Assembly: GCA_016176465.1 (NCBI GenBank)
Contig: JACOXD010000007.1
Location: 1 to 55,510 of the forward strand
Source: Candidatus Daviesbacteria bacterium
GTDB taxonomy: Bacteria > Patescibacteriota > Microgenomatia > Daviesbacterales > UBA10151
Direction: 5' to 3'
Length of the DNA: 55,510 nt
A program made the translations under genes and the position numbers. The notes under the pieces are model-generated. The model was not told the origin of the DNA, searched no databases, and was given only the letters and a program-made list of their open reading frames with translations. The first letter of the stretch is position 1; every line of letters starts with the position of its first letter. Shown here piece after piece: positions 1 through 14,807 of this stretch.

Positions 1-561
1 ACCTTATCTCCTATTTTGTAGTATTCTGCATCCTTTAAAAAGGTAATTACCAAAATCCCGCCCTCTTTTAGCATAGAAGTTATATTTTTCATTATATTCT
101 TCCATGCCTTTTTTGAATTAGTAATAGACTCACTAACAAAGTTTGAACTAATAACATCATAATATCCCCTATACTTAGGGTGGATAGGATCCTCTTGAAA
201 AGCATCACAAGAAAGAAATTTCTTAATTTTTTTCTTCAAAATTTCTTCCCTAATCGTTAACTCCTCATTTATATTCTCTATTCCTTCTAAAGCTAGAGCA
301 TTTTCAAAAAAAGTTTGCCAGTTAAATCTTTCATTGTGTCCTTTCACCCATTTCTTAACTTCTTTAAGGTTGTTTTTTAGGTAATCAGAGAAGTGAATTT
401 CCTTTACCTTTCCTGATGCTGTTATAAGCTGGTAGATTGTAGGTCCTCCACTAAACTCAAGCATCAATATTCTCTAAACCTAACTTAGAGTAATATTCAT
501 TTAAATATGCTTTAGAATCAAAAGCACTAAAATCTTTCTCTAATTTCTTTTTCTTATTCAT
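1..561 (-). pseudogene. SAM-dependent methyltransferase (NNMT/PNMT/TEMT-like), apparently split by a frame change; C-terminal end runs off the window
   Basis: Own translation, not in the ORF track. The frame from ATG 464..462 reads MLEFSGGPTIYQLITASGKVKEIHFSDYLKNNLKEVKKWVKGHNERFNWQ... (GxGPTIYQ-type SAM motif) and stays open to nt 1. A separate 34-codon ORF 561..457 (MNKKKKLEKDFSAFDSKAYLNEYYSKLGLENIDA*) looks like the family N-terminus but is in another frame. Its ATG overlaps the stop of the 549-aa gene. Confidence 0.45.
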
Positions 562-2203
562 TTTGCTTATTACTTTTATTCTTTTCCAGTATAGCTGAAG
601 TAGTTGCCCAAGCAACATTGGTAGTTGCAAATACTACTTGATCAACATAACAAGCTAGCCCATATGCATACCTTGAATATGGTTCATCTATATACCATCC
701 CCAAGCAAACATAGGTGTAAATCCACTTACAAAAATATCAAAAGCTGCTCCAAATTTACCCCAAGAAGGATTTGCTGCAAGCAAACCATTCTCGTCTATT
801 TTTCCTGTCATATTTGCCAATGGTGTCTCCCATATATCGGGGTTATATTGTCTTTTTTTAAGTATATTACTATCAATCACTGCCCTAGCTCCCATGCCGC
901 ATGCAAGCGCACTTGTTGTTGCAGCTGCTACTAGAGGAGCAGGATTAGAATCTACAATAGACCTAAATTCTGGTGAATTAAGTAACCCATATAAAGCAGC
1001 GTATCCTAGGACATATCTTGGTAAGGTATAAATAGTAAAACTTAATCCCAGTGATTTTGCTACCCTACGATAAAAATCAGGATGTTGAAGATTTCTAGCT
1101 TTAAGCTCGTCCAAATCATACCTTGCAGTCACCTCTTTAATAAGTTTTTTTCTATTTTTCTCGCTAAAAGCAAACTCACCTATTTGATTGCTATCTGACA
1201 TTACTTGTAGGTTTGCAGGCATAGCGATAATCTTTTCACCTACCTTAGAAATGCCTCTTATGTTACTCCTATCACCTAGGTTTCTTAGCCCTAATCCTAC
1301 GCTCAACATTAATAACTTAGATAGACTTCCTAAATTGCCTAATCGATCTTCCACCGCAAAACCCCAGGCTTTGCCCAATGTAGGTTGGTCGGGTGATGTA
1401 TTTTCAAAATCCTCTAACCACTGATCAATTACATCCTTTTGAGCTTTATACAAGTGTCTTTTCCTATTCAATTTCTTTGCCAATTGGCTTCTAAAAAGAG
1501 TAGGATCTAAAAATCTGTTTCCTAATCGAGAATCCGGATCTTGTATTTCTATAACTGCTGACTGAATTTTTTCTGAAGCATCTTCAAGAGCATGGTCGCT
1601 AAAGTGAATTCCAAGTTGACTTTTTTGTTGATTTGGCAATATAAGAGGCGTCCCACCCATACTTTCAATTGTTGAGTACACTTTTGGTTTAAGATCAATA
1701 GGCGTACTTCTAGCAATCAGTTTTCCTAGATGGTAACCTATCCGTTCATCTGTTAAATGACTTCTTACCCAAGAACTTAAGTTTAATGATGGTTCTAAAG
1801 TTGCGGGCTGCTCAATTTCTGAATTTAATGGCAATCTATCAAAATTTGCTAACCAATAATGTATAACTTCCCTTTGAGCATCAGAAAACTTTACTGTTTC
1901 ACCTGAATCCTCATCTCTAGTGACGTACAAAACTGGATCTTCTTTTCTCCTTCTTCTAATTCTCCTTGCCTGAGCTAATCTTTTCATAGCCGAAGTCTTA
2001 AATTGCTCAACACCTAATTCAAAAGAGCTTCCACTAACATCTACAGGCTCAATTGTTCTTAAAATTCTACTAAGTACACCAGATGACTCAGCTACAAGTA
2101 GTGGGTCTTGAAATACTCTCTCAAGAGCCTGACTTTGAGTTTCGGGTAAAGATACAGGAATATTTCCAATGCGTGGAGTAAATTTTACTTCAAACCTCTC
2201 CAT
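554..2203 (-). CDS. hypothetical 549-aa protein, soluble N-terminal two-thirds plus Gly/Ala-rich hydrophobic C-terminal third
   Basis: Long uninterrupted ORF. It has an internally duplicated motif (AQREVIHYWLANFDRLP / AQKDVIDQWLEDFENTSP), a basic patch RRIRRRRK, and a hydrophobic C-terminal region (LVAAATTSALACGMGARAV..., FTPMFAWGWY). No family recognised. Confidence 0.55.
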   Translation of the reverse strand: MERFEVKFTPRIGNIPVSLPETQSQALERVFQDPLLVAESSGVLSRILRTIEPVDVSGSSFELGVEQFKTSAMKRLAQARRIRRRRKEDPVLYVTRDEDSGETVKFSDAQREVIHYWLANFDRLPLNSEIEQPATLEPSLNLSSWVRSHLTDERIGYHLGKLIARSTPIDLKPKVYSTIESMGGTPLILPNQQKSQLGIHFSDHALEDASEKIQSAVIEIQDPDSRLGNRFLDPTLFRSQLAKKLNRKRHLYKAQKDVIDQWLEDFENTSPDQPTLGKAWGFAVEDRLGNLGSLSKLLMLSVGLGLRNLGDRSNIRGISKVGEKIIAMPANLQVMSDSNQIGEFAFSEKNRKKLIKEVTARYDLDELKARNLQHPDFYRRVAKSLGLSFTIYTLPRYVLGYAALYGLLNSPEFRSIVDSNPAPLVAAATTSALACGMGARAVIDSNILKKRQYNPDIWETPLANMTGKIDENGLLAANPSWGKFGAAFDIFVSGFTPMFAWGWYIDEPYSRYAYGLACYVDQVVFATTNVAWATTSAILEKNKSNKQNE

Positions 2204-2300
2204 ATATGCTTATTTTACCAAATAACTATGGGTTTAACAAGCTAGGATAACCCCTTTGTTAAATTTGTTAGAGTTAAGAAGTACTAATGTAGCGAGGCTA

Positions 2301-2319
2301 TTACACCTGGAAGGTGTAA
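2301..2319. repeat. type-1 REP-like hairpin TTACACC-TGGAA-GGTGTAA on the 3' side of RAYT copy 1
   Basis: Perfect 7-bp stem. It lies inside a 54-nt block (2300..2353) that is repeated identically at 6555..6608. Its core CACCTGGAAGGTG is the reverse complement, with 1 mismatch, of CACCTTTCAGGTG found on the other side of the gene. Confidence 0.75.
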
Positions 2320-2351
2320 CAGGATGGTCACCTGCCAACTTTATATACACT

Positions 2352-3020
2352 TTATTCCATAGTTAGATGTTTAATTTCTTCCAACTTTTTTCCATAATCT
2401 ATTTGGTCTAAAACAAACTTTTCATAATCTTTCCCAGATTTAAAGAAACTTAAAACAGGTTCTGAATCTACCAACTCTGACTGACCTTTTATGTAATCTG
2501 GTAAAGAGGACCAAGGGTAAGATAAAAGCTCCACCTCTTTAATCACAAAAGATACTACTGGATTTAAGTGAATATATCTTGAGAGATGGATAAGCTGCTC
2601 ATTACTCTCAATATGTACAGCTTTAAACACTCCTTGTAAGATTGGGCCAACCCTCTTATTTTTAGTATTAATATATTTAGTATAGCTATTGCTAAGTTTA
2701 CTTAGAAAAATAGTAATGCCATTATCTATTGTTTGTTGTAGTAGGAAGTGAAAATGATTGGGCATAAGGACAAAGCTCACTATTTTAACCAGTACTTTAT
2801 TTTTAATAGTAAGCTGATCTAAAAGTGTCTCTCTGTCTTTTTTTGAAAGCTCTTTAAATCTGGACAATCTCACAGGTGGTTTTTCAAAACGATAGTAGGA
2901 TAAAGCAAGTAACGCTTGCGCGTAATCGGATTGATGGTGAAATATTGGTTGCCTTGCTACACCTCGGTTGTAAACATGATAATACTCTCCTGTTGCAAGT
3001 GGCACTCTTTTGTCTGCCAT
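2352..3020 (-). CDS. Y1 HUH transposase, IS200-like / REP-associated (RAYT-like), copy 1
   Basis: 222 aa with YHVYNRG near the N-terminus, an HUH motif in LMPNHFHFLLQQ, a Tyr-containing SNSYTKYINTK, and RVGPILQGVFKAV and SRYIHLNPV blocks. About half its residues are shared with the copies at 18027 and 51669 (by eye). It is flanked by inverted hairpins. Confidence 0.85.
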   Translation of the reverse strand: MADKRVPLATGEYYHVYNRGVARQPIFHHQSDYAQALLALSYYRFEKPPVRLSRFKELSKKDRETLLDQLTIKNKVLVKIVSFVLMPNHFHFLLQQTIDNGITIFLSKLSNSYTKYINTKNKRVGPILQGVFKAVHIESNEQLIHLSRYIHLNPVVSFVIKEVELLSYPWSSLPDYIKGQSELVDSEPVLSFFKSGKDYEKFVLDQIDYGKKLEEIKHLTME

Positions 3021-3026
3021 ATTGCC

Positions 3027-3055
3027 AAAATATCAGTATGGTTGTGGTTTGTCAA
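3027..3055 (-). promoter_or_regulatory. putative promoter of RAYT copy 1 (TTGACA-17 nt-TATTTT), -10 box ends 6 nt before the ATG
   Basis: Read on the minus strand: TTGACA = 3055..3050, TATTTT = 3032..3027, ATG = 3020..3018. The same geometry is seen for RAYT copy 3. Confidence 0.4.
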
Positions 3056-3065
3056 TAGGTGCCCT

Positions 3066-3121
3066 ATCTGTTTCACCTTTCAGGTGGATGACTATGTTCC
3101 TTTCAGGTGGATGACTATGTT
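3066..3121. repeat. cassette-boundary element E-A (21-nt core ATCTGTTTCACCTTTCAGGTG) with a perfect 23-bp tandem duplication
   Basis: Core at 3066..3086 is identical to 4911..4931 and 5907..5927. CCTTTCAGGTGGATGACTATGTT occurs twice back to back (3076..3098, 3099..3121). The hairpin is CACCT-TTC-AGGTG. Confidence 0.8.
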
Positions 3122-3646
3122 GCTAATTGTACCATCAGAGAGTCCATAAGCTCTGTATATCCACGTTTGGCCTCCTATCTGTATTGTCCTTTCTATAAAC
3201 TCATTGGGCTTGAGTTGACCTACCTGAGAGAGATCTCCTTTTATTGCTGCCTCAACCATATCTGCAGTTAACCCAGTCCCTGCTAAGTGTTGTGCAGCAT
3301 GTTCATGTTTAATGATGATTTTTAGATCCTTCGCCGCGTCGACTACTTTATTAGTAAATTTCAAAGTACCTAACGAAATACCAGGTATTGCTAGTCCTAC
3401 TAAATCAATAGCTGTCCCCCCAGGATCACAGTTATTTAAATCTTGTGACAAGAAAAAAATATCCTGCTGTAGATCCGGAGAAGAAGTAACCGCAGTAGCC
3501 CAGGTATAAAAAGCTAGGATAAGAGCGGGAGCTATTTTGCCTGAAGGATCTGAGAAATTAATAGGGTTATTTAAGGTATAAGCATATGGATTTTGAGTTT
3601 GGGCACTTGTAAGCAGACCACTAACTGGGTCTTTGGTTATAAACAT
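3092..3646 (-). CDS. displaced (orphan) Rhs C-terminal tip A: short core remnant plus pre-toxin linker plus RelE/colicin-E5-like (DUF4258-like) putative RNase domain, 3' end replaced by element E-A
   Basis: N-terminus (IFPDPTTG)MFITKDPVSGLLTSAQTQNPYAYTLNNPINFSDPSGK matches the Rhs-1 core end YYDPVTGRFITRDPIKG...NPYSYVVNNPVNLSDPAGE; homology extends upstream to about 3667. The C-terminal part KHEHAAQHLAGTGLTADMVEAAIKGDL...IQIGGQTWIYRAYGLSDGTISN resembles small BECR-fold toxins (family call is recollection). The last codons NIVIHLKGT* are encoded by the repeat element. Confidence 0.7.
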   Translation of the reverse strand: MFITKDPVSGLLTSAQTQNPYAYTLNNPINFSDPSGKIAPALILAFYTWATAVTSSPDLQQDIFFLSQDLNNCDPGGTAIDLVGLAIPGISLGTLKFTNKVVDAAKDLKIIIKHEHAAQHLAGTGLTADMVEAAIKGDLSQVGQLKPNEFIERTIQIGGQTWIYRAYGLSDGTISNIVIHLKGT

Positions 3647-3669
3647 ACCAGTTGTTGGATCAGGGAAAA

Positions 3670-4083
3670 TTAGCTTACTCGATGACTATATATGTCTACA
3701 TCTAACTCAGCATTGTATTCTGCAATTTCTTTTAAGATTTTTTTATCAATATGAAGCCCAGAATTGTAGTCTTTCATATATATAGCGCATCCAAACTCGA
3801 TGAGGCATTTTTCCGCAACATCGAGTATCGCTGCCTTGTAAGGACGTAGCGTTTCAAGTAAAAAGCTTAAATGTTTTTCTACTGACTCTGTGATTGGTAA
3901 TGATGACGTTAATTTCCATGTATTCTCTCTAATAATTACTTTTCCCTTTCCAAAGGGCTTAGTGCTTCCTTTTACCCACGCTTCAGTTGGCTTAAGTCCA
4001 ATCTTTTGTGTTAGGTGTTCAGGGGAAGATGTAAAATCGTATATCGCAAACCATACATACGTCTTATCTTTCGCATTTTCCAT
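3670..4083 (-). CDS. putative immunity protein for tip B (DUF4279-like)
   Basis: 137 aa, starting 15 nt after the tip-B stop. The pattern FAIYDFTSSPEHLTQKIGLKPTEAWVKG...W.L.S...LDVDIY resembles DUF4279 proteins common in polymorphic-toxin loci (recollection, not searched). Confidence 0.55.
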   Translation of the reverse strand: MENAKDKTYVWFAIYDFTSSPEHLTQKIGLKPTEAWVKGSTKPFGKGKVIIRENTWKLTSSLPITESVEKHLSFLLETLRPYKAAILDVAEKCLIEFGCAIYMKDYNSGLHIDKKILKEIAEYNAELDVDIYSHRVS

Positions 4084-4097
4084 ATTCTAAGAGTATA

Positions 4098-4910
4098 TCA
4101 GAAATCTTTAATATTAAGGCCAGTTGGCTCTCCAGGGCCTTGTCCATCTCTTGGCTTCTGATAGATATTTCCATCTTTATCTTTGAAGAGATCGTACTTG
4201 CTGCTTCCTTTACCTTTAATTTGATGTATATTTTCACCGCCCTTTTGCAGCATTTTTATTTCTCCTTCAGACAATTTTGTGAATTGTTTAGAAGTATCAA
4301 GTACTTCATCAGCTACTTTAGCAACTCTTCCTACCTGCTTGATTGCTCCTATTGAAACAAAAGGTATACCTATACTAACAACATCTAGTGCAGCTCCACC
4401 CCAATTGCAATTAGATAAATCCTCTTGCAAAGCTACCACATCTAAGGTAGTTCCTGCTGCATCTAGCAGATACAAAAACCAAGCCTCACCAGAAGGATCA
4501 CTTCTATTTATGGGATTATTGCCAACATAAGCGTATGGACTTAATGTTTGAGGATAAGACAGTACACCCTTTACTGGGTCTTTAGTTATAAACCTGCCTG
4601 TGCTTGGATCATAGTATCTGGCTCTTAGGAAATATAAACTAGATTCTGGATCTAGCTGTTCACCTTGGAAGAGATAATTACTACCTGAAGTAGAACCAGA
4701 CCTAATATTCCCAAAAGGATCATAGTCAAAATTGGCAGTTTTAGAACCAGATGAGTTTGTTAGAAATCTTGTATTTCCTAATCCATCAACCAAAGGATAA
4801 ATCCTTGAGCTAGATCCAGAAGGTCCTTGGCTGATTAAATCTAACCCATAGGCATAGTAATTTTGGGCACTATTGCTACCATTAGTTTCTAGTAATACTT
4901 TAGATAACAT
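4098..4910 (-). CDS. displaced Rhs core plus toxin tip B, apparently intact with its own ATG
   Basis: Residues 1-140 (MLSKVLLETNGSNSAQNYYAYGLDLISQGPSGSSSRIYPLVDGLGNTRFL...RARYYDPSTGRFITKDP...NRSDPSGE) are near-identical to Rhs-1. DNA 4530..4906 matches roughly 7470..7846 at about 90% by eye. The divergent C-terminal domain ends ...IHQIKGKGSSKYDLFKDKDGNIYQKPRDGQGPGEPTGLNIKDF. Confidence 0.8.
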   Translation of the reverse strand: MLSKVLLETNGSNSAQNYYAYGLDLISQGPSGSSSRIYPLVDGLGNTRFLTNSSGSKTANFDYDPFGNIRSGSTSGSNYLFQGEQLDPESSLYFLRARYYDPSTGRFITKDPVKGVLSYPQTLSPYAYVGNNPINRSDPSGEAWFLYLLDAAGTTLDVVALQEDLSNCNWGGAALDVVSIGIPFVSIGAIKQVGRVAKVADEVLDTSKQFTKLSEGEIKMLQKGGENIHQIKGKGSSKYDLFKDKDGNIYQKPRDGQGPGEPTGLNIKDF

Positions 4911-4944
4911 ATCTGTTTCACCTTTCAGGTGTTATTATGTTATT
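4911..4944. repeat. cassette-boundary element E-B
   Basis: ATCTGTTTCACCTTTCAGGTGTTATTATGTTATT; 31/34 identical to E-C. It directly abuts the point where tip-B homology to Rhs-1 starts, and the ATG of tip B (4910..4908) lies at the junction. Confidence 0.8.
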
Positions 4945-4961
4945 AATCACACCTTAAGTAG

Positions 4962-5324
4962 CTACCGAGTGCTCTTTTCCTTTAATAAAGTTGTCATCTG
5001 CAAAAGATTTTCTGTCCAATCTGAATAACTTTTCTTATACTTTGACTCGGTGCTATTTTTAGTTTTTATTTCTTTTATCCTTTTTAAGATATGCGTTAGT
5101 TCTCTATGTCCTTTATCTACTAAACTAAGATCTATATCTTCATCATTATGATAGACATAAGAACTTACTAAACCTGCTAAAGTAGTATCCCAACCTACGA
5201 TTAAAAAAAAATAATCACTTAATGAACGATTCTCTCCTCCAGAAGAATCAGGCAAAGGGTTTTGTTCCGCTTCCTCAAATAGTTTTTTTAATTTCCTCTT
5301 ATTAATACTTTCTTTGTCGTACAT
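4962..5324 (-). CDS. putative immunity protein for tip C
   Basis: 120-aa ORF starting 3 nt after the tip-C stop. The call rests on position only; no family recognised. Confidence 0.45.
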   Translation of the reverse strand: MYDKESINKRKLKKLFEEAEQNPLPDSSGGENRSLSDYFFLIVGWDTTLAGLVSSYVYHNDEDIDLSLVDKGHRELTHILKRIKEIKTKNSTESKYKKSYSDWTENLLQMTTLLKEKSTR

Positions 5325-5327
5325 GTT

Positions 5328-5905
5328 TTAGTTATACCAGAAACTTACAGCCTTAATTGCTCCATCAATAATTTTAAAGTACCCTCCTGGATTTCCCGGA
5401 TCCCTAATTAAGAAGCCGGATGAATCATCGTTGAGTATAACCTCTTGGGCTTTATCTTTATTCTTAGAGAAAAATTCTATAGCATCGCGCGAATATTCCT
5501 CTATGGTTTTCCCGACTCCATGTTGCTTAAAATGATATTCTAATGATTCTTCTGCTGTTTTAAAAGTACTTTTATACCAACTCTTTGCGACGACTTGACT
5601 AGTTGTTCTTCCAACTTTCCCTATAGGCCCAGCAAAAGGTAATCCTGAAATCACATTAAATACTGCGCTACCAGGATCACAGTTTCTCAGATCATTATCT
5701 ATAGTCATATATTGAGCCATTAAGTATTGTGTCACCACTGGATTACTTAAAAAGGCAGCTGCACCATATAATGCGATGAGCCACACGAATTCCCCTGATG
5801 GATCAGAGAGATTAACTGGATTATTTAGAGCATATGATTAGGGATTTTGAGTTTGTGGCATAGAGTTTAATCCACTCACAGGATCCCTAGTTATAAATCT
5901 ACCTG
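5328..5905 (-). pseudogene. displaced Rhs tip C, core remnant interrupted by an in-frame TAA
   Basis: Own translation of 5905..5787: DTGRFITRDPVSGLNSMPQTQNP*SYALNNPVNLSDPSGEF, continuing into the tracked ORF 5328..5786 (VWLIALYG...). The TAA sits where the other copies have Tyr (NPYSY/NPYAY). The C-terminal domain has LEYHFKQHGVGKTIEEYSRDAIEFF (possible nuclease-type H..KHG motif, weak). Confidence 0.6.
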
Positions 5906-5906
5906 T

Positions 5907-5940
5907 ATCTGTTTCACCTTTCAGGTGTTACTGTGTTACT
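5907..5940. repeat. cassette-boundary element E-C
   Basis: ATCTGTTTCACCTTTCAGGTGTTACTGTGTTACT. It abuts the start of tip-C core homology on one side and the stop codon of a toxin remnant (5942..5940) on the other. Confidence 0.8.
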
Positions 5941-6033
5941 CATTTAAAATCTTTAATATTATAACCGATTGGCTCTCCAGGGCCAGAACCATCTGTAATA
6001 AATTACCTTCCCACTTGATGGGCGGGAATTCAC
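5940..6033 (-). pseudogene. frameshifted 3' remnant of a tip-B-like toxin domain
   Basis: Own translation gives ...DGSGPGEPIGYNIKDFK* (compare tip B ...DGQGPGEPTGLNIKDF*). Upstream, SSGKVIYYR is in another frame (compare DKDGNIYQKPR). DNA 5943..5995 aligns with 4098..4150. Confidence 0.5.
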
Positions 6034-6061
6034 AATTTGAGTTTAGATTTTAATATGTTTC

Positions 6062-6427
6062 TTATCTAATGATGACTTCCATTGTATCTATATTCGGTGA
6101 TCCCTGCATTGGTGCTCCATCCATTCTTACAAACTCTAACTCATCTATTTTCCCTTTTATAATATGTAATAAAATTAATATTGGCCCTCCGCCACCATCT
6201 TTTGTCCTTCCCTCTACCGGCACCCGTTCCTTTACTATAGCTTCTTCTCCTAAAACGTCTTCAAACTCTATACTTCCATAATTGTCTTTATATTCTGTTA
6301 ATGTTCTAACCTTACAATTTTTTATTTGTTGCCTTAGCTCGTCTCTACCAGGAAATGGACATTCCAATAACTTTTGTAAAACTTGTACTTCAAATTCATT
6401 TAATTTTCTATAAGTTTTTTTAATCAT
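6062..6427 (-). CDS. putative immunity protein (DUF6984-like) left next to a truncated toxin
   Basis: 121 aa. Its ATG overlaps the TGA of the upstream toxin remnant (ATGA). The pattern ...VPVEGRTKDGGGGPILILLHIIKGKIDELEFVRMDG resembles immunity-type proteins of polymorphic-toxin loci (recollection). Confidence 0.5.
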   Translation of the reverse strand: MIKKTYRKLNEFEVQVLQKLLECPFPGRDELRQQIKNCKVRTLTEYKDNYGSIEFEDVLGEEAIVKERVPVEGRTKDGGGGPILILLHIIKGKIDELEFVRMDGAPMQGSPNIDTMEVIIR

Positions 6428-6528
6428 TTTTTCAAATAATAAGTACCTACACTAACAGTACCATCTTTTAATGTCCATGGACGATATTCTATTTTCTTTC
6501 CACCGACCTCTATAATTCTACTTACAAA
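6424..6528 (-). pseudogene. 3' remnant of a tip-A-like (DUF4258-like) toxin domain
   Basis: Own translation FVSRIIEVGGKKIEYRPWTLKDGTVSVGTYYLKK* aligns with tip A IQIGGQTWIYRAYGLSDGTISN. It is cut off on its 5' side by the duplicated junction at 6528..6557 and the hairpin. Confidence 0.5.
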
Positions 6529-6557
6529 AGTGAAAGCTTATTAAGTGAAAGCTTATT
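6528..6557. repeat. perfect 15-bp tandem duplication (AAGTGAAAGCTTATT x2) abutting the hairpin
   Basis: Direct reading of 6528..6542 and 6543..6557. The related single-copy sequence next to RAYT copy 1 is AGCGAGGCTATT. Confidence 0.85.
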
Positions 6558-6660
6558 ACACCTGGAAGGTGTAACAGGATGGTCACCTGCCAACTTTATA
6601 TACACTTTCTTCTAAAGTTAGATGTTTTATCTCTTCAAGTTTTCTCCCATTCTATGCCTT
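6555..6660 (-). pseudogene. 3' fragment of a RAYT-like gene with its hairpin (TTACACCTGGAAGGTGTAA at 6556..6574)
   Basis: 6555..6608 is identical (54/54) to 2300..2353. Beyond that the minus strand encodes GRKLEEIKHLTLEE (compare RAYT1 C-terminus GKKLEEIKHLTME*). Nothing of the catalytic part remains. Confidence 0.7.
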
Positions 6661-6706
6661 CTTTGATCAGTTGGTAAACCCGATTTTTTATCAATCAAGA
6701 TAAAAA

Positions 6707-7015
6707 CTATTCTTTAGTTGAATTATCGAGTAAATAGCGAAAAAACTTTGGATCTTTAATATGGTATAGAATATGCCTAAATTCTTCCCCAGTTTCTAGA
6801 AGTAAATCGTATATTTCCTTATTACTTAAATTTTGTTGGGTTAATTTTGGTAATTGCTCTTGTATAAATTTATTAAAAGATTCTTCTAGGTCTAGAAAAG
6901 CGTGTGCAAGTGTCCAAGCTTCTTTGCTTTCATCCTCATCGTACCGTGTAACTTCAGGAAGTTTTGAAAGTCGTTCTGCAATTTGTTTGTACTTTCTGGC
7001 GTATGTAGATATAAT
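6707..7015 (-). CDS. candidate immunity gene of Rhs-1, an ORF with no ATG/GTG/TTG
   Basis: Own translation, absent from the ORF track. The frame is open from 7033 to the TAG at 6709..6707: (NFKKEL)IISTYARKYKQIAERLSKLPEVTRYDEDESKEAWTLAHAFLDLEESFNKFIQEQLPKLTQQNLSNKEIYDLLLETGEEFRHILYHIKDPKFFRYLLDNSTKE*. The only start-like codons near the 5' end are ATT (7015..7013, overlapping the Rhs TAA) and ATA. AGGAG lies at 7022..7018. Confidence 0.35.
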   Translation of the reverse strand: MISTYARKYKQIAERLSKLPEVTRYDEDESKEAWTLAHAFLDLEESFNKFIQEQLPKLTQQNLSNKEIYDLLLETGEEFRHILYHIKDPKFFRYLLDNSTKE

Positions 7016-10000
7016 TAACTCCTTCTTAAAATTTCATCAATTGCATTTATTTGTTGTTGAAAATTGCGAATTTCTTTTTCCATAGAGCTTGTAAAACCCC
7101 CTACCGATTGAGCTTCTTTAATTTTTTGAAGGTGCTCAATAATCAGCTTCTGTAGACTTGCTCGAGCTTTTTGAAGCGAGTCTGAACCGTTAGTGATTAA
7201 TTGTTTTTCGAACTGCCTAACTTGGTTTTCAGTAAAACTTAAGGTCTCATCAAGGATCTTACCAGTTTTATTTACCTTGGTCAAACCGGCGGGTAAAGGA
7301 GTCAGTACTCCGATCAAATCCCAAACTACTGCATTGCTATCACAATTCCTAATATCATTAGCTAAGATAGCCAAATCAGCAGCGGTTAGAAGAATTCCTG
7401 CTATTATTAATGGAGCTATTTCTCCTGCAGGGTCAGATAAATTAACAGGATTATTGACAACATAACTATAAGGATTCAAGGTTTGGGGATTTTGCAGTAT
7501 TCCTTTAATTGGATCCCTAGTTATAAATCTTCCTGTTACAGGGTCATAATACCTTGCTCTTAGGAAGTAGAGGTTTGATTCTGGGTCTAGCTGTTCCCCT
7601 TTGAATAAGTAATTACTCCCTGATCCTGAATTTGTTCTAATATTTCCAAATGGATCATAATCAAAACTGGCAGTTTTAGATCCTGAAGAATTGACCAAAA
7701 ATCTGGTATTTCCTAATCCATCAACTAAAGGATAAATCCTTGAGCTAGATCCAGAAGGACCTTGGCTGATTAAGCCTAACCCATAGGTATAGTAATTTTG
7801 GGCACTGTTACTACCATTGGTTTCTATTAATACTTTAGATAAAGATCCTGAAATATCATTTACAAACCTGGTTGTAGTTGTCCCTTTAACTTTTTGCAAC
7901 CTATTCCCTAATCCATCATAAGTAAAGGTAGTAGTATTTGCTCCTGATTGGTTTGGACCACCCTTATAATAATTAATTACCCCATCATATTCTCCTAAAA
8001 ATAAATCAATATAAGAATCTCCATCTATATTGATAAAAGATGGAGTGCTATTGCTGCCAATATCTAAATTGGAGTAGGTGGCGCTTACAAGCTGGAATGA
8101 TGGGGAAGATTTGTTTCCTATATTTCTATAAAAGCTTACTTTCCCATCAGACTTTCCAACAAACATATCCAAATCTAAATCTTTATCAAAGTCAACAAAT
8201 GCTGGTTTGCTTGATGTGCCTATATCAATTCCTGCAAAAAGTGTTGTATCCACACTAAAACTTGGGTTAGTTGAGGAGCCTGTGTTCCTATAGAATTTGA
8301 CAGTTCCACTATACTCGCCGCTGACTAGATCAAAGTCTCCATCACTGTCGATATCCACAAAACTTGGGTTGCTGTATGATCCTATATCTAATCCTCCATA
8401 TTTCGTTGACTCCTGGACAAATGATGGTGAATTTTTATCGCCGTTGTTTTTATAAAGGTAAAAAACCCCGCTGCTGTTTCCAATAAACAAATCTAGATCA
8501 GTATCCCCATCAATATCCACAAATGAAGGGGCACTCCTTGAGCCTACGTCAATATTTAAGTATCTATCACTCACCTTTGTATAAGATGGTGATGTGTTTG
8601 TTCCATTATTTTGATAAAACTCAATATAACCATCACTATCTCCAATAAATAAATCCAAATCAGAGTCTCCATCTATATCTACAAAAGTTGGGCTAGAATA
8701 ACTCCCAACATCAATATTGGAAAATTTACTACTTGAAATAGTAAATGATGGTTCTGGATTAGGCAGGGTTGTTGATGCTGAAACTAAGCGATCCTCAAAA
8801 TCATAACTTAAGTCTTTAGTACCTAAATCTCCTGTTTGAGAACTTAAGTTGCCGTTTCCATCATATGAAATAGTGCTACCCCCTGTTTTAATTAACTGAC
8901 TATCTTCGTCGTACTCATAAATTATCTCAGTCTCATTTATTTTTTGAAGTTTCCTATTATCTACTTTATCAAAATTATATGAGTATTTTTGGTTATTTGG
9001 ATAAATAGCTTGGGCTAATCTACCTAACAAGTCATAGCTATATTGGGTTATTAGCGCTGTGCTAGATTCTTGAGCAAAAGCAATTTGAGGAGAAAATATA
9101 TCCTTAATTTGATCTACTGCCCCTTGAATTAATTTAGCAAAAGTTTTTAACTGTTGATCGAGTGAAGCAGAGGAACCCACTTGAACGTTGAAAGGACCAA
9201 AAACATTATTATCCTCATTGCTCTCAGTTATACTCCTAGATCTATCAACAACAGCCCAAATATTGTGGGTACCAGCGGTGGAGAAGTCCTCATAAGTCTC
9301 AGTAACTGTAGTTTCCGAACCTGCAGCCAAACCATTAGTATATGAAACACTATCATTGTATGATCCAAAGTCTGGCGCTGTCGAACGATCATAGTAAATA
9401 CCTACTCTAATATATGTACCGCTTGGCACAGAAGTTGTCCCTTGGTTTTTAATAGTTACCTTAATGTCAAAATCCTGATTTGGAGCTGGGTTGGGAATAG
9501 TTAAAGATATTCCTGTAACAATTAAATCAGGCTTATCAGCGGGTGTAGGGCTAGGAGAAGGAGATGGACTTGCACTAGGGCTTGGAGAAGGTGAGGGTGA
9601 TGGGCTGGGTGAAGCTGAAGGTGATGGAGTGGGAGTAGAACTCGGTGAAGGAGAAGGGCTGATGCTAGGACTTGGGGACGGCGTAGGACTAATCGATGGA
9701 CTTGGTGATGGACTTGGTGAGGGCGCTGCTATTACAAAAGCTCCCTCCTCAGTGGATTGAGTGACATTACCAAGTGAGTCTCTTTCGTAAGTGTATTTAG
9801 CCAAAATCTGATTTTGGGAATTAAGATAAGCTAGGCTGGCTAATCTATTTGCGCTATCGTATCCATATTGGCTACTGATTCCATTAGGCAAGTTTTTAGC
9901 CTGCAAAAGATTATTTTTATTGTAAGAGTATGTTGTAACTTGGTTGTTCCAATCAGAAACTGTAGTCAACCTATTTTTGTCATCAAAGGTATATTTAACT

Positions 10001-13000
10001 ACCTTACTACCAGGATATGTCACCTGTGTCAGATTTCCAAGTAAATCATAAAGATAACTAATGGTTTGAGCATATGGATTTTTAGCAGATAAAAGCTGAT
10101 CATATTTATTGTAGGTATAAGTTGTGGTGCCTGATGGATCAACTATCTGAGTTAGATTTCCCCTCGGATCATAAGTATAAGTGACACTAGTACTGTTAGG
10201 GTAAGTAATTTTGCCTAATCTATTTAATGAGTCATAGCTATACTGAGTAGTTATCTGCTTTGCATCAATTCTTTTGCTAATATTTCCGTTTGCATCATAT
10301 TCCCATTTTGTAGTTTTACTTTGTGGAGTAACTGAATCCTTTTGTCTGTTGAGCACATCAAAGCTATGTCTTGTTTTCCTCCCAAGCGCATCGGTGATAA
10401 TCTCTAAGTTTTGATAATTATCATAATCATAGCTAGTCCCCTGACCTAGCGCATCCGTAACAGAAACTAAACTTCCCAGAGTGTTATATGTGTACAATGT
10501 CTCTCCGCCATTTGGCAGTCGAACCTTAATTAAACGACCCTCTAAATCATATGTGTTATTTATAGTTCCAGCTGCAGTTGTTTCTGATAAAAGATTACCA
10601 CTGTTATCATAGCTAAACGTTACTTGCTTACTTTCTTGATCAGTTTTTTTAACTAATCTCCCCAATGAGTCGTACTCATATATTATTTGATGCCCAAGAG
10701 GCTCCTCCTCTTTTATAATTTCCCCAAAACCATTTCTTGTAAAAGAAGTAACTTTGTTTAAGTGATTTGTCGATGAGCTAATCTCACCTAAGCTGTCATA
10801 GGAAAATTTAGTTAATCTTCCTGCCTCATCTATTTGAGAAAGGTTACCTTTAGGATCGTAGATAAACTTTGTTTCTTTAGCTAAGTTTCCATTAACGTTT
10901 TTATATCCATCATCCAAGATTCTAGTAATATTATTTTTATTATCATATTCATAGGTAATTTTTATATTAGAAGGGTCTGTTCGGGATAGCACATTTCCAT
11001 TTGCATCATAAGTAAAGGTTGTTTTATTTAATTTCGGATCAGTAACAGTTATGGGTGAGTACTCTTTGTCATAGCTATATTTAGTAACTCCACCCAAAGG
11101 ATCATAACTTTCCAATACTCTTGCTTTATCATCGTAAACCATCTTGGAAGTTCTCCCATTACTATCAGTTATATTTATAGCTTTATTTGTTTCATCATAG
11201 TTAAAGGAAGAAACTTTACCTGAAGCATCTTTTTGAGTGGCGACCTTGCCCTCCTCTGTATAGGTATTTGTAATTATTGTTTGGCCTAATTTATTGATAA
11301 CTGTGGAGAGTTTGTTGTCTTCAGTATAAGTATATTTGGTCACTCCCCCATTTGGATCAGTGACTGAAATTAGATTACCAATGGAATCATATCCATAATT
11401 AACAGCTCTGTTAGTCCAATCAGAAACAGCACTTACTAGGTTTAATGAGTTGTAAGATAGGACTAAATTGTGTCCTTGATTATCAGAAATAGTAGTTAAT
11501 TTACCTGATGGATCATAGCTATAGTTTATTGAATTGCCATTTTTGTCTACTTGTTTAACTAATTTAAGATCTACCCCGAAGATTAGCTGAACCTGATTCT
11601 TGAGGGTAGCTGTGAACGTACCATCATTATTTGGGAAAAGTGATGAGTTATAAGCCTCATCATCAGGTACATACCCAGTTGTACACGATGATAGATTAAA
11701 GGTTTCTCTTCCAGAAGGTGTCTCAAGAGCCATATATTTGGGATACCAGCCAGAGATAGGTCCTGAAGAACAATTTCCTACTTTATAACCAGGCTTTAGA
11801 TCTGTTAATTTTGCTGGAATAAAAGTCCATCCTTTACCTATGCCTTGCTGGCTACTGGAAAATGATGAGTAGTCTCTTCCAAAAGCTAAGCTCAAATCGC
11901 CAGGGGTCGGAAAACTCATATCAACCGATGAGGTTGAATAGGCACCAATACTTCTAAACAAATTAGCATCCAGTGCTACTGATTCATAAGTTTGTCCACC
12001 TTGTGAGAAAGACCAGTGTATTTCGCTATTCGATTCAGGAACAGCTTCAGAAGCAGTTTTTGTGGAGGTGGCAGAACCATCATCGATTTTATACTCATTA
12101 GGAGTAAAATAATCAACTCCACCGGTTATCCGCCATTGTGTCCCATTTGGCGCACTCTGGAAAGGAGATGTTAGTCTTGGTATTTCATTTGGAGTATCAA
12201 CAAACTTAGGTTGGTGATCTTTAGCCCATTCGAAGTTATTTAAAATACCGTTATCTTTAATCCATTTAACCACTGCTACAACCTTTGCTAGCTGTTTTAC
12301 CTCTTGATAGGAAGGAATCTCATTTGCAAATAAATCATAGTTTTGTGTTTGATGATTGGCAAAATCAATTGCTGCTTTATTCCATGCCGGATCATTACTG
12401 GACAAAATTCCTTCTGTTTCCACTTGCATTTTAACTTGATCAAACACAAAAGTAGTATTTGGGTCATCTTTTTTTAAAGTTACTAGTTGAGGAGAAATCC
12501 ACCAGCGGGAACCGCTTTTTTTATTAGGATCAGGATTATTGGCAGTAAACATATCCAAAACAGATTTATAACCAGGAACAGAAGAACTTATTTTTTGACC
12601 ATTGGCAAAATACCCTTGGACATATTGTTTCATCATATAATCCGCATCCAGTAGATCTTTTCCAAATTGGGTATCCTCTACACCACCTCCGAAAATCACA
12701 TTCATATTAGGATCACCAAAAGCATTATTGTTATCCTTGAATTCTATGCTTACAGTAGGAGTTGAGTTATTAAAAACAACTGCTCTGATTGCTACTGCCA
12801 GATCATCTTTGTCAAATTTTGGTAGTGAGGTATTTTTCACTCCTACAAAAACAATCTTATCTTGAGTGTTATCATAGTAAGCTCCCCTTATATCTGACAT
12901 ATCAGCCAAAAATGTTGCTGCCTCATCAAGTGCTACCCCTCCAACTCTTGTAGAGATATAAGCTTTTAATTCATCTAAAGATTGTGCTTGGCAGATGTTA

Positions 13001-13107
13001 TCTGCGGCGTGGACGGATCTTGGACTAAATGGTAGGGATACTAGAGGTAAGCTAGGTATTAAAATTAAAAGCACACTTAAAAATAGAGCAATTAGCTTAT
13101 GAAACAA
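7015..13107 (-). CDS. Rhs/YD-repeat polymorphic toxin (Rhs-1), 2030 aa, Sec signal peptide
   Basis: Signal peptide MFHKLIALFLSVLLILIPSLPLVSLPFSPRSVHA/AD, then an unknown domain of about 400 aa, then many YD repeats (YSYDPSGKL, YGYDSIGNL, YTYTEDNKL...). These are followed by a Pro/Ser linker, a CARDB-like module (DLIVTGISL...NNVFGPFNVQV), more YD repeats and six FG-GAP/VCBS-like units (FVDIDGDSDLDLFIG...). The Rhs core follows (...RARYYDPVTGRFITRDP...NPVNLSDPAGE, DPAGE at 7434..7420), then a 134-aa C-terminal tip. Confidence 0.95.
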   Translation of the reverse strand: MFHKLIALFLSVLLILIPSLPLVSLPFSPRSVHAADNICQAQSLDELKAYISTRVGGVALDEAATFLADMSDIRGAYYDNTQDKIVFVGVKNTSLPKFDKDDLAVAIRAVVFNNSTPTVSIEFKDNNNAFGDPNMNVIFGGGVEDTQFGKDLLDADYMMKQYVQGYFANGQKISSSVPGYKSVLDMFTANNPDPNKKSGSRWWISPQLVTLKKDDPNTTFVFDQVKMQVETEGILSSNDPAWNKAAIDFANHQTQNYDLFANEIPSYQEVKQLAKVVAVVKWIKDNGILNNFEWAKDHQPKFVDTPNEIPRLTSPFQSAPNGTQWRITGGVDYFTPNEYKIDDGSATSTKTASEAVPESNSEIHWSFSQGGQTYESVALDANLFRSIGAYSTSSVDMSFPTPGDLSLAFGRDYSSFSSSQQGIGKGWTFIPAKLTDLKPGYKVGNCSSGPISGWYPKYMALETPSGRETFNLSSCTTGYVPDDEAYNSSLFPNNDGTFTATLKNQVQLIFGVDLKLVKQVDKNGNSINYSYDPSGKLTTISDNQGHNLVLSYNSLNLVSAVSDWTNRAVNYGYDSIGNLISVTDPNGGVTKYTYTEDNKLSTVINKLGQTIITNTYTEEGKVATQKDASGKVSSFNYDETNKAINITDSNGRTSKMVYDDKARVLESYDPLGGVTKYSYDKEYSPITVTDPKLNKTTFTYDANGNVLSRTDPSNIKITYEYDNKNNITRILDDGYKNVNGNLAKETKFIYDPKGNLSQIDEAGRLTKFSYDSLGEISSSTNHLNKVTSFTRNGFGEIIKEEEPLGHQIIYEYDSLGRLVKKTDQESKQVTFSYDNSGNLLSETTAAGTINNTYDLEGRLIKVRLPNGGETLYTYNTLGSLVSVTDALGQGTSYDYDNYQNLEIITDALGRKTRHSFDVLNRQKDSVTPQSKTTKWEYDANGNISKRIDAKQITTQYSYDSLNRLGKITYPNSTSVTYTYDPRGNLTQIVDPSGTTTYTYNKYDQLLSAKNPYAQTISYLYDLLGNLTQVTYPGSKVVKYTFDDKNRLTTVSDWNNQVTTYSYNKNNLLQAKNLPNGISSQYGYDSANRLASLAYLNSQNQILAKYTYERDSLGNVTQSTEEGAFVIAAPSPSPSPSPSISPTPSPSPSISPSPSPSSTPTPSPSASPSPSPSPSPSPSASPSPSPSPTPADKPDLIVTGISLTIPNPAPNQDFDIKVTIKNQGTTSVPSGTYIRVGIYYDRSTAPDFGSYNDSVSYTNGLAAGSETTVTETYEDFSTAGTHNIWAVVDRSRSITESNEDNNVFGPFNVQVGSSASLDQQLKTFAKLIQGAVDQIKDIFSPQIAFAQESSTALITQYSYDLLGRLAQAIYPNNQKYSYNFDKVDNRKLQKINETEIIYEYDEDSQLIKTGGSTISYDGNGNLSSQTGDLGTKDLSYDFEDRLVSASTTLPNPEPSFTISSSKFSNIDVGSYSSPTFVDIDGDSDLDLFIGDSDGYIEFYQNNGTNTSPSYTKVSDRYLNIDVGSRSAPSFVDIDGDTDLDLFIGNSSGVFYLYKNNGDKNSPSFVQESTKYGGLDIGSYSNPSFVDIDSDGDFDLVSGEYSGTVKFYRNTGSSTNPSFSVDTTLFAGIDIGTSSKPAFVDFDKDLDLDMFVGKSDGKVSFYRNIGNKSSPSFQLVSATYSNLDIGSNSTPSFINIDGDSYIDLFLGEYDGVINYYKGGPNQSGANTTTFTYDGLGNRLQKVKGTTTTRFVNDISGSLSKVLIETNGSNSAQNYYTYGLGLISQGPSGSSSRIYPLVDGLGNTRFLVNSSGSKTASFDYDPFGNIRTNSGSGSNYLFKGEQLDPESNLYFLRARYYDPVTGRFITRDPIKGILQNPQTLNPYSYVVNNPVNLSDPAGEIAPLIIAGILLTAADLAILANDIRNCDSNAVVWDLIGVLTPLPAGLTKVNKTGKILDETLSFTENQVRQFEKQLITNGSDSLQKARASLQKLIIEHLQKIKEAQSVGGFTSSMEKEIRNFQQQINAIDEILRRS
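7957..8735 (-). repeat. six FG-GAP/VCBS-like repeat units inside Rhs-1
   Basis: Units of about 45 aa recur with N(I/L)D(V/I)GS.S.P(S/T)FVDIDGD.DLDLF.G...G....Y.N.G....PSF. Confidence 0.75.
9541..9731 (-). repeat. low-complexity Pro/Ser(Thr) linker coding repeat inside Rhs-1
   Basis: Encodes APSPSPSPSPSISPTPSPSPSISPSPSPSSTPTPSPSASPSPSPSPSPSPSASPSPSPSPTPA. It is mirrored by a spurious plus-strand ORF of GEGDGLG repeats. Confidence 0.9.
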
Positions 13108-13770
13108 TTAAGGTTTCTCCTTACTTTTTACAACTGAAGGCAGTTTTTGATCACTTTTAAGTTTTTTTACTTTTAACTCCTTTTTAATTGAGCCCATAAG
13201 CTTACTTTTATCCTTGTTTACCAATTTAGGTTCTGTAAAGATTGTTTCATCGCTTTGTGTAAAATAGTTAACTCTGGCATCAAATTGTATTGTTAAATCC
13301 TCTCCTGGGTTAATTCTTAAGTTGGGAATAACTATGGTATTTTTATCAGAGGATAAATTAGCGCTTCCTTGAAGGTTATGAATATAATTGAGTAAATTCC
13401 TTGGAATATTGGTTTCTAAAGTAATAAAGGAATACTCATTATTTGTGTTGTTATTGATTTTATACTTAAATCTAATAACCTCACCTGAGTCTATCTCTCC
13501 ATTTTTATCCAGGTCACCATTTGGTGTCAGAGAAATATCAGAATCAAGTGTTAAATTATTAGCTGGAGCAGACTCTGGTGTTAAAACCTCTTGAATCTTT
13601 TCTAAGGTAAAGTTAAATAAGTCTTCTAAAAAAAATGCTCCCACCTTGGGAGCAAAGTAAAGGGGAAAACCCAAAAGGACCACAATCATAATTAAGTAAA
13701 ATCTTAATCTATCCGAGAAGTACTTGTAGATTTTGGTCATTTTCTCCATTAACATGTCCTGACCAGACAA
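13108..13770 (-). CDS. membrane-anchored beta-sandwich-like protein, adjacent with no gap to Rhs-1 and possibly translationally coupled
   Basis: 220 aa with an N-terminal TM segment (FYLIMIVVLLGFPLYFAPKVGAFF). Its stop codon at 13108..13110 directly abuts the Rhs-1 ATG (13107). The middle part resembles DUF11/CARDB-type adhesin folds only loosely. Confidence 0.55.
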   Translation of the reverse strand: MSGQDMLMEKMTKIYKYFSDRLRFYLIMIVVLLGFPLYFAPKVGAFFLEDLFNFTLEKIQEVLTPESAPANNLTLDSDISLTPNGDLDKNGEIDSGEVIRFKYKINNNTNNEYSFITLETNIPRNLLNYIHNLQGSANLSSDKNTIVIPNLRINPGEDLTIQFDARVNYFTQSDETIFTEPKLVNKDKSKLMGSIKKELKVKKLKSDQKLPSVVKSKEKP

Positions 13771-13794
13771 TCTTAGTATAACTTTATTTGGCCG

Positions 13795-14289: not shown

Positions 14290-14326
14290 AAAGTATATTA
14301 TATCATGAATTTAGGCTATAGGATAA

Positions 14327-14737: not shown

Positions 14738-14807
14738 TCGCTAACTTATTTTTTAGCAATTAACTCCTCTTATTTTGGTATACCACTACTTGAGATAAAA
14801 GTCAAAA

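Follow-up and report, generated by a model that had tools for sequence, protein, structure and literature searches.

A hairpin-ended Y1-HUH transposase module beside an Rhs orphan-toxin array in a Daviesbacteria contig, with partial module ends at toxin-fragment junctions

Y1 transposases associated with repetitive extragenic palindromes (REPs) or terminal inverted repeats (TIRs) are widespread, and their effect on genomes is largely obscure. In E. coli and Pseudomonas, a RAYT (TnpAREP) gene flanked by hairpins of the REP or BIME (bacterial interspersed mosaic element) type reportedly makes up a unit called the REPtron (Nunvar 2010, Ton-Hoang 2012, Messing 2012). Arrays of orphan toxin and immunity genes are likewise said to accompany Rhs and CdiA (Poole 2011, Koskiniemi 2014). 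A second class of Y1 genes, TnpAY1 subclass 2.1 (Quentin 2018, PMC6006769), is the TIRYT/TIRtron class of Di Nocera 2013 (PMC3733652) and also group 1 of Bertels. It is already known that orphan Rhs arrays are littered with mobile-element debris (PMC3150448). Here, we analysed a window of 55,510 nucleotides (nt), one entire metagenomic contig (JACOXD010000007.1) of a Candidatus Daviesbacteria bacterium (assembly GCA_016176465.1). In this window, a Y1-HUH gene (RAYT-1), its promoter and two inverted hairpin ends form a REPtron/TIRtron-like module at the distal end of an Rhs orphan-toxin array. Further copies of the hairpin lie inside the array. We lean towards reading these as partial module ends that stem from local events, either cut-and-join or replication errors provoked by the hairpin, in which Rhs DNA was duplicated, deleted and fused, with recombination between core repeats having done the rest.

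The element is most easily followed through a 21-mer, ATCTGTTTCACCTTTCAGGTG, which occurs as three exact copies on the plus strand (3066, 4911 and 5907), the same count and single orientation that the original prediction had reported. It was absent from 100 shuffled sequences, and no fourth copy was found in the window with three mismatches allowed. The core CACCTNNNAGGTG occurs five times (2304, 3074, 4919, 5915 and 6559; 0.04 expected by chance), always within the same 4.3 kb (2304-6571), the remainder of the window having none. Since the stem CACCT/AGGTG is its own reverse complement, the orientation of an element is set by its loop and tail. The loop reads GGA at 2304 and 6559 and TTC at 3074, 4919 and 5915. 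We built an nhmmer family profile of 41 positions from 25 elements, on which true members score 26-44 bits and chance 19-mer matches 19-25 bits, the latter matching the searched positions only. By this profile, full elements occur in the window at 2283-2335, 3054-3089 and 6555-6591 only, and all copies lie within 2283-6591.

The first two of these full elements, hpD-1 and hpU-1, enclose the RAYT-1 gene as inverted partners, their palindromic repeats lying at 2304-2325 and 3066-3086, and the inverted repeat around the gene is about 25 nt in extent (TAACACCTGAAAGGTGAAACAGAT versus TTACACCTGGAAGGTGTAACAGGAT). The upstream element hpU-1 matches profile positions 4-39 with 27.4 bits. Its downstream partner hpD-1 is double-footed, with a family-type tail on either strand (outer side GTAGCGAGGCT), and matches the profile on both strands (34.1 and 26.3 bits). 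Folding of the DNA gave a weak 5-bp hairpin (-3.5 kcal/mol) and a more stable 8-bp hairpin at hpD-1 (-9.8 kcal/mol, z = -2.7). A known RNA was ruled out as the identity of the element, as an Rfam search of positions 1-14000 (E <= 1) gave no match. A role as terminator was also rejected: no T run follows the hairpin on the coding strand, and the sole terminator-like prediction is on the antisense strand.

RAYT-1 has the HUH motif, the catalytic tyrosine and the Y1 fold of the Y1-HUH (IS200-like) superfamily, and both of its motifs are invariant across an alignment of 20 sequences. It scored 25.9 bits against Pfam Y1_Tnp, above the cut-off, and 46.2 bits against the NCBIfam model REP_Tyr_transpos (NF047646), where the cut-off is 80, leaving it outside the RAYT model. 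Searching the PDB directly by sequence returned nothing for the protein, and a profile search gave only weak matches to ISDra2; RAYT-1 was therefore placed structurally by a fold search. The top PDB match of its AlphaFold model (pLDDT, the predicted local distance difference test, 86.9) was 4ER8 (E = 6.8e-6), the E. coli TnpAREP with its REP hairpin, followed by the TnpA proteins of ISDra2 and IS608 (2XM3 and 2VJV among the matches). The promoter-like site of the gene ends 7 nt before the ATG, and the mRNA is thus probably leaderless. The same promoter box follows the hairpin tail in three homologous loci (L003, L013 and L017), and L003 and L017 also keep the layout of the site relative to the ATG.

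The pairing of gene and hairpin recurs in other genomes. RAYT-1 has more than 7,400 homologues, and those with a named source come from Gottesmanbacteria, Levybacteria, Blackburnbacteria and other Patescibacteria (the Candidate Phyla Radiation, CPR). Homologues that are 58-77% identical (L003, L004, L013/L041, L030, L059, L068 and L006) carry the same hairpin on both sides, inverted and with the tails inward. Their upstream layout consists of the hairpin, AAACA(G/C), seven bases, ACCT, a TTGACA box and the ATG, and the downstream side is its reverse complement. In L006, of the Blackburnbacteria lineage (58% identity), the stem CACTY...GAGTG replaces CACCT...AGGTG with the arrangement unchanged. 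In an alignment of ten hairpins, every one of the 50 stem cells is paired, and at two stem pairs L006 has compensatory changes. Genomes with Y1 proteins of no more than about 60-77% identity retain the same 19-mer. The proposal that the inverted hairpins and the Y1 gene form a REP/RAYT-like pair is borne out by this shared arrangement, by the compensatory stem changes and by the TnpAREP-like model fold, and we consider it well established that the 21-mer is the core of a terminal inverted hairpin repeat cognate to the adjacent Y1-HUH gene.

The extended family consensus is (C)AGGTAGCGAGGCTGTTT-CACCT-TTC-AGGTG-ACG. In the portion GGTAGCGAGGCTGTTT-CACCT, a GTAG stands about 12 nt away from the hairpin foot (8 nt when counted from the 8-bp stem of hpD-1), and hpU-1 has GTGC where the family has GTAG. 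Scanning genome contigs with the 21-mer yielded two matches, in a Magnetococcales and a Flavobacteriales metagenome-assembled genome, both at chance level on the family profile. A metagenome scan with CACCTGRAAGGTGWAACAG gave 58 loci with one match each, about half of them chance. No true family member in that scan was near an Rhs gene, the match at L021 being a GC-rich chance one. We rejected a phage element as well, since all six matches in a scan of viral contigs were at chance level.

How does this module compare with the described systems? Like the REPtron, it encodes a Y1-HUH protein with a Y---NP tyrosine motif in a gene bracketed by cognate inverted palindromes, hairpin and gene co-vary between lineages, the closest structural match is 4ER8, the breakpoint described below lies at C/T as in TnpAREP cleavage, and solo copies exist away from the gene. 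Unlike the REPtron, its protein falls below the NCBIfam cut-off (46 versus 80 bits) and is longer (222 versus about 165 amino acids, aa), its stem is of 5-8 bp only, its host belongs to the CPR, its GTAG stands 8-12 nt from the hairpin foot (0-2 nt for REP) and is absent from the upstream copy, and there is no sign of high copy number, with five copies in 55 kb, all local. Meanwhile, subclass 2.1 shares with RAYT-1 the HUH motif NH[YF]H, the tyrosine motif Y[IV]HLNP and the length (222 aa versus a median of 238 aa; PMC6006769, Table 1). TIRtrons also have terminal inverted repeats of about 25-40 nt that can be partly self-complementary, at low copy number, as singles and clusters, and both Y1 paralogues of the window carry an inverted repeat of their own (about 25-35 nt for RAYT-1 and 31 nt for the second gene, RAYT-2). 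The published TIR consensus GGGGWSAS, which holds for most described cases, is absent from both of these repeats, and Quentin et al. (PMC6006769) found no REP-like structures in subclass 2.1, whereas the repeat of the module is centred on a conserved hairpin. IS200/IS605 elements such as IS608 and ISDra2 have the same catalytic fold, subterminal hairpins recognised on single-stranded DNA, cleavage a few nt from the hairpin and no target-site duplication. They differ in that the ends of the module are inverted and not direct, that it has no tnpB and no identical multi-copy pattern (the two Y1 genes of the window are only 49% identical), that one Y1 homologue keeps the same gene context in every contig read, and that the flanks of its copies (AACA, CCTG and GCCC) share no target tetranucleotide. 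The module thus works like a REPtron and belongs with the TIRtron-type relatives, with the distinction that a conserved hairpin lies at the centre of its inverted repeat.

Two extra left ends (hpU-2 and hpU-3) and one extra right end (hpD-2) lie within the array. The original prediction had stated that two copies of the element abut the nucleotide where the homology of an orphan tip to the core of the full-length gene, Rhs-1, begins. A DNA alignment of Rhs-1 with the three tips confirmed this: core homology starts at TTATCTAAAG in tip B, 2 nt from the element, and at ACAGGTAGATTT in tip C, with a 1-nt overlap. The unit repeated in copies 2 and 3 is in fact 38 nt long (4910-4947 and 5906-5943), as against the 21 nt first noted, and in both copies the natural outer foot (TTAYTRTGTTAYT) and the hairpin are retained, with a tail shortened to exactly 9 nt. 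On the profile, hpU-2 covers positions 7-33 alone (22.5 bits) and hpU-3 positions 7-26 alone. Read on the plus strand, the left-end junctions are GCCC/TATCTGTTT in the intact end and AACA/TATCTGTTT and CCTG/TATCTGTTT in the extra ones, the TATCTGTTT side beginning TATCTG. The intact copy has C/T at the break point, and the two extra copies are fused there to different positions of the Rhs core. The break therefore falls at the same nucleotide in two unrelated junctions, which suggests site-specific cutting.

The three left ends share 22 identical nt, and the outer 16 nt of copies 2 and 3 differ at four positions. Identical cores beside drifted flanks indicate that the cores are constrained or homogenised, and more than decaying debris. 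The right-end copy hpD-2 (97 nt) is 90% identical to 2299-2395. Its first 55 nt, which comprise hairpin, inner tail and everything as far as the stop codon, are identical to hpD-1, and the next 42 nt are 76% identical. Each element has a truncated gene next to it. Missing are the 3′ end and the immunity gene of tip A, the immunity gene of toxin remnant 2, the 5′ core of tips B and C and the 5′ part of toxin remnant 1, and one Y1 gene is reduced to its last 45 nt or so. At two junctions of the same array, between the tip B immunity gene (immB) and tip A and between the DUF6984 gene and remnant 2, no element is present. An inverted partner in degenerate form, following the tip C immunity gene (GGTAGCTACTTAAGGTG, about 4950-4975), would have bracketed tip C fully, but was rejected because nhmmer gave no match at E <= 10. 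Microhomology between the element tail and the Rhs core at the junctions (CAGAT versus CAGGAT, and ACAG) is too short to tell from chance.

Crystallographers have reported that the cut of E. coli TnpAREP falls at C/T close to its hairpin, and that the enzyme, which stays on the 5′ side of the cut, could take any 3′-OH for strand transfer (PMC3479197). From three sequences, we infer that the junctions of the array are what chemistry of this type would leave. The Y1 enzyme would bind the hairpin on single-stranded DNA, nick the plus strand at C/T, 9 nt 5′ of the hairpin, and stay attached to the 5′ T. A free 3′-OH from nearby DNA, for example a nascent strand in the repetitive Rhs region, could then resolve the intermediate. 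The outcome would be any sequence joined to TATCTGTTT and the hairpin, producing local duplications or deletions, and ordinary homologous recombination among Rhs core fragments could account for the remainder. Replication slippage provoked by the hairpin would be a variant of the same idea. The part of the enzyme in making the junctions is a putative one.

Observations in other genomes are relevant to this cut-and-join reading. Tandem partial duplications of the outer flank and left arm occur at the upstream hairpin in L004 (1360-1410), L013 (6625-6662) and L064 (about 4182-4210). Such recurrent duplications at the hairpin, in the window and in unrelated genomes, suggest a repeated process of slippage or nick repair. 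L017 (7902-8256) holds a miniature module with both hairpin ends and only 29 N-terminal Y1 codons, a deletion derivative like those known as MITEs (miniature inverted-repeat transposable elements) or REPINs. In L003, which holds the closest relative (Y1 protein 77% identical), the gene order is dksA, Y1, HisPhos, response regulator and PvlArgDC. The window has dksA, response regulator, PvlArgDC, a 220-aa gene, Rhs-1, the array and Y1, which places the module 11 kb away, past the array (break at 13108-15152). Neighbouring proteins of the two genomes are 71-74% identical, and given this break in synteny the Y1 module occupies different sites in them. Together, the duplications, the L017 derivative and the L003 shift show the module and its ends to be prone to rearrangement in several genomes.

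Several points weigh against the cut-and-join reading. It rests on a single instance, and the best Y1 homologue is only 77% identical. The cleavage site was derived post hoc from three sequences, with a boundary that is ambiguous by 1 nt in copy 3 and by 3-4 nt in hpD-2. Most of the conserved tail, its GTAG-containing part included, is missing from the partial copies. The 55-nt identity of the right ends may reflect gene conversion and not constraint. The left-end copies also share their outer boundary, so that a transposed discrete mini-element of 38 nt would explain them equally well.

The shared boundary of copies 2 and 3 is also what a passive repeat would show, that is, REP- or MITE-like copies that piled up in dispensable DNA near their source gene, had no part in making the junctions and settled at the orphan borders as the sole intergenic spots. 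REP and TIR families are known as singles, dimers and clusters that accumulate near the Y1 gene (PMC3733652, PMC6006769), solo copies exist in unrelated contexts in other CPR contigs (e.g. L064 and L062), and the orphan arrays of relatives arise without the element. Under this reading, however, the empty sites would be fusions of a toxin end or an immunity-gene end to the middle of a core, and in both the breakpoint meets the element to the nucleotide. The copies are also truncated relative to the family consensus at an identical internal nucleotide, no common target sequence lies beside them, and the five relatives with enough sequence have no extra hairpin within 1-10 kb of the Y1 gene. We regard a passive repeat as unlikely, though it is the likeliest of the alternatives.

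Could the element instead be kept for its effect on expression? At the tip B junction, an ATG arises from the last base of the element together with two filler bases. It is in the reading frame of the core fragment and 8 nt after AGGTG, as would suit a ribosome-binding site with a start codon (AGGTGAAACAGATATG) or another signal for separate expression of the orphan tips. Expression of orphan Rhs genes is known in Salmonella (PMC7043789, PMC3967940). Against this, the tip C junction offers no start codon beyond the element, and the tip itself is interrupted by an in-frame stop. The copies are without the promoter found at the intact end and, having no T run after the hairpin, form no terminator, and conservation of the element across genomes follows the Y1 gene and not the downstream genes. 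An expression signal is accordingly very improbable as the reason for its presence.

An assembly artefact, in which alternative tips of co-existing strains were stitched serially at a shared short repeat, seems scarcely credible. The window is a whole metagenomic contig and Rhs loci vary between strains, as such an error would need. On the other hand, the exact repeats are just 22-25 nt long, and no k-mer longer than 1-2 nt is common to the tail-side junctions and the Rhs core, which leaves a de Bruijn graph no path by which to create them. Orphan arrays of this form are normal in relatives, and the GC content is uniform (0.36 in the window and 0.359 in the array).

The array itself has a full-length Rhs gene, core fragments with distinct tips and cognate small genes, and is thus an Rhs orphan toxin/immunity array (Table 1). 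The minus-strand order proposed by the original prediction, from Rhs-1 to the intact 222-aa Y1 gene, was recovered. Orthologues of Rhs-1, about 50% identical, occur in Gottesmanbacteria and relatives. The stretches of core-end homology are 7842-7420, 4907-4485, 3667-3536 and 5906-5790. Tip A lacks an immunity gene, directly adjoins immB with no element between and runs at its 3′ end into the hairpin duplication. Tip C is a pseudogene, given the in-frame stop after Q T Q N P. Toxin remnant 2 is 81% identical to the 3′ end of tip B (4102-4149). At 4908-4931, the fusion of element and tip B creates AGGTGAAACAGATATG, with a Shine-Dalgarno-like AGGTG and an ATG that opens a clean 270-aa open reading frame of core fragment and Ntox33.

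Table 1. Coordinates of the Y1 modules, hairpin elements and Rhs array genes in the window
Feature	Position	Strand	Description
hpD-1	2283..2335		Downstream terminal hairpin repeat of the Y1 module; core CACCTGGAAGGTG at 2304-2316; 8-bp stem TTACACCT/AGGTGTAA
RAYT-1	2352..3020	minus	Intact Y1-HUH transposase-like gene, 222 aa; HUH motif NHFH, tyrosine motif YIHLNP
Y1 promoter-like site	3027..3055	minus	TTGACA, 17 nt, TG-TATTTT; 10 of 12, best match in the region
hpU-1	3054..3089	minus	Upstream terminal hairpin repeat with full tail; 21-mer at 3066-3086
23-nt perfect tandem duplication	3076..3121		Spans hairpin and outer flank; gives truncated tip A its stop codon
Orphan tip A	3092..3667	minus	Rhs core end from DPTTGMFITKDP; Rhs_assc_core 28.9 bits; tblastn and translation
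Tip B immunity candidate	3670..4083	minus	DUF4279; Pfam E = 1e-21
Orphan tip B	4098..4910	minus	141 aa of Rhs core (84% identical to Rhs-1) and Ntox33 domain
hpU-2	4910..4947		Partial left end: outer foot, hairpin, 9 nt of tail
Tip C immunity candidate	4962..5324	minus	120 aa, no family match
Orphan tip C	5328..5906	minus	Core homology from TGRFITRDP
hpU-3	5906..5943		Partial left end; 89% identical to hpU-2 over 38 nt
Toxin remnant 2	5944..6000	minus	3′ end of Ntox33-like toxin (ending GPGEPIGYNIKDFK and stop), without immunity gene
Immunity-type gene	6062..6427	minus	Intact, DUF6984; terminator-like hairpin follows at 6028-6008
Toxin remnant 1	6430..6527	minus	C-terminal ~32 codons (ending IEVGGKKIEYRPWTLKDGTVSVGTYYLKK and stop); translation
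15-nt perfect tandem duplication	6528..6557		Overlaps outer edge of hpD-2
hpD-2	6554..6650		Partial right end: hairpin, inner tail, last ~45 nt of Y1 gene; 33.7 bits
Start-less reading frame	6706..7011	minus	Directly after Rhs-1, presumed immunity gene of resident tip; without canonical start codon (translation)
Rhs-1	7015..13107	minus	Full-length, 2030 aa; RHS repeats, FG-GAP, CARDB
Second Y1 module	51631..52399	minus	Gene RAYT-2 51669..52343, 224 aa, 49% identical to RAYT-1

Arrays of Rhs/CdiA orphans share with this one a full-length gene followed by 5′-truncated core fragments with alternative tips and immunity genes, as well as degenerate remnants and occasional debris of transposable elements. 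Here, by contrast, the debris consists of Y1-HUH module ends that coincide exactly with two core-fragment boundaries, and the arrays of relatives have none. For the comparison with relatives we selected nine distinct orthologous Rhs loci (250 kb in all) by an Rhs protein about 50% identical and the conserved 220-aa partner gene upstream. The element was absent from all nine, and so was any Y1 gene. One of them (L072-L074) holds three orphan tips with core fragments of differing length and no element, so orphans form without the hairpin.

These loci bear directly on the interpretation offered by the original prediction, in which the Y1 enzyme and the hairpin may act as a recombination site that captures or shuffles toxin/immunity cassettes, in the manner of IntI and attC. 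Its premises that hairpin and Y1 gene belong together and that the element sits at rearrangement junctions held up; the general Rhs cassette platform was not supported. In its favour, elements bracket tip C with its immunity gene and precede tip B, and both copies have an identical break nucleotide and conserved cores. As in integrons, imperfect palindromes, which would be read as folded single strands, lie at cassette borders with neighbours of the toxin/antidote type. Unlike in integrons, the enzyme is an HUH nuclease where integrons use a tyrosine recombinase, attI and a common promoter are lacking, and the elements are truncated, missing at some borders and non-recurrent in related Rhs arrays. 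The array does not combine a site at every border, a dedicated recombinase and recurrence in related arrays, as an integron-like array would. Besides the nine element-free Rhs loci, the Y1 homologues whose surroundings were listed (L003, L004, L006-L011) stand amid housekeeping genes, two junctions of the array are free of the element, the extra copies have lost most of the tail, and there is one instance only. We consider a cassette platform improbable. On the reading that we favour, the link between the module and the Rhs cassettes is local and idiosyncratic to this genome, and no dedicated platform is involved.

A loose association with toxin-antitoxin modules elsewhere points towards cassette capture. 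Among about 12 distinct loci with solo family members, that is, without a Y1 gene in the fetched stretch, six adjoin such modules: Phd-PIN (L018 and L036), NTase-HEPN (L028/L043), BrnT-BrnA (L033), Phd (L048/L027) and PIN with HicBA and AbiEii (L061/L025). In L061, three elements within 900 nt bracket hicBA. Three of the six loci (L018, L028 and L033) have the order of hairpin, tail and operon start seen at the Y1 gene and at tips B and C of the window. In L028, the hairpin and its NTase-HEPN pair lie between imperfect direct repeats (1330-1370 and 2122-2165) that correspond to the last 14 codons of the neighbouring minus-strand gene (HLELPAGVNIEIKM and HLELPAGVNIEVRM, each followed by a stop). 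This displacement of a 3′ end is reminiscent of orphan formation. On the opposite side, homologues of the L028 HEPN protein, in NTase-HEPN cassettes of variable toxin-antitoxin islands in other genomes, have no element, and the orientation of the element relative to the genes is not uniform, L061 and L048 differing from L018, L028 and L033. The adjacency, counted without a matched control, may also reflect the tolerance of repeats in accessory islands. A broader proposal is that, in Microgenomates and related CPR bacteria, this family of Y1-HUH enzymes and its hairpin ends would be a single-stranded DNA device that captures, duplicates or moves toxin-antidote cassettes (Rhs tips here, type II/IV toxin-antitoxin modules elsewhere), an HUH analogue of the integron. 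We hold it to be just as doubtful as the platform; if it were true, the junctions at 4910 and 5906 would be natural footprints of cut-and-join chemistry.

Other features of the window and of the loci compared are recorded here in their own right. The inverted repeats of RAYT-2 (CCACCTTYCATTTG..., 51631-51661 and 52369-52399) are 31 nt long, 81% complementary and not centred on a hairpin, and no extra copies of them were found in the window. RAYT-2 lies just upstream of an Rhs-2 fragment, so both Y1 paralogues of the contig are near Rhs loci. At 43395-50833, a stretch that contains no hairpin elements, an Rhs C-terminal fragment (49610..50833) is accompanied by an immunity-type gene of DUF7674. 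A 1929-aa protein with SpvB, TcdB_toxin_midN, RHS and FG-GAP domains comes next and gives a Tc-toxin-like B/C architecture in a CPR-type contig. The 220-aa gene just upstream of Rhs-1 (13108-13770) has homologues (40-52% identity) directly upstream of Rhs in all nine related loci (L070-L082); it has no Pfam match and may encode a dedicated partner of this Rhs family, such as a chaperone or adaptor. Another hairpin repeat was seen beside a variable toxin-antitoxin island, at L089 (10526 and 10940), L091 (4878) and L098 (4351). It reads CACCTCGGAGGTG (CACCTCGAAGGTG at L089 10940) followed by GCCCGCTTCGC; the form in L098, CACCTCCGAGGTG, is loop-inverted and differs in its 3′ flank. This repeat may be the cognate element of another Y1 lineage.

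It was already known that Y1 genes are bracketed by cognate inverted repeats and that orphan Rhs arrays contain debris of mobile elements. What is new is that subclass-2.1-type Y1 genes from a very large CPR branch have a conserved hairpin, that partial module ends sit exactly at toxin-fragment fusions, apparently broken at one nucleotide in a way that fits HUH chemistry, and that there may be a link to toxin-antitoxin modules. Of the papers that full-text literature searches listed, none describes this arrangement. The Rhs connection is a one-off at a single locus, which permits no generalisation and falls well short of an integron analogue.

Natural products of the chemistry that TnpAREP performs in vitro, cutting at CT and joining any 3′-OH, are hard to point to. 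Here, two unrelated fusions start at one nucleotide of the hairpin end that belongs to the enzyme, and they are plausible as natural footprints of TnpAREP-like chemistry. Should the loose association with toxin-antitoxin modules hold up in a controlled survey, domesticated HUH enzymes would be tied to the turnover of conflict genes in reduced genomes.

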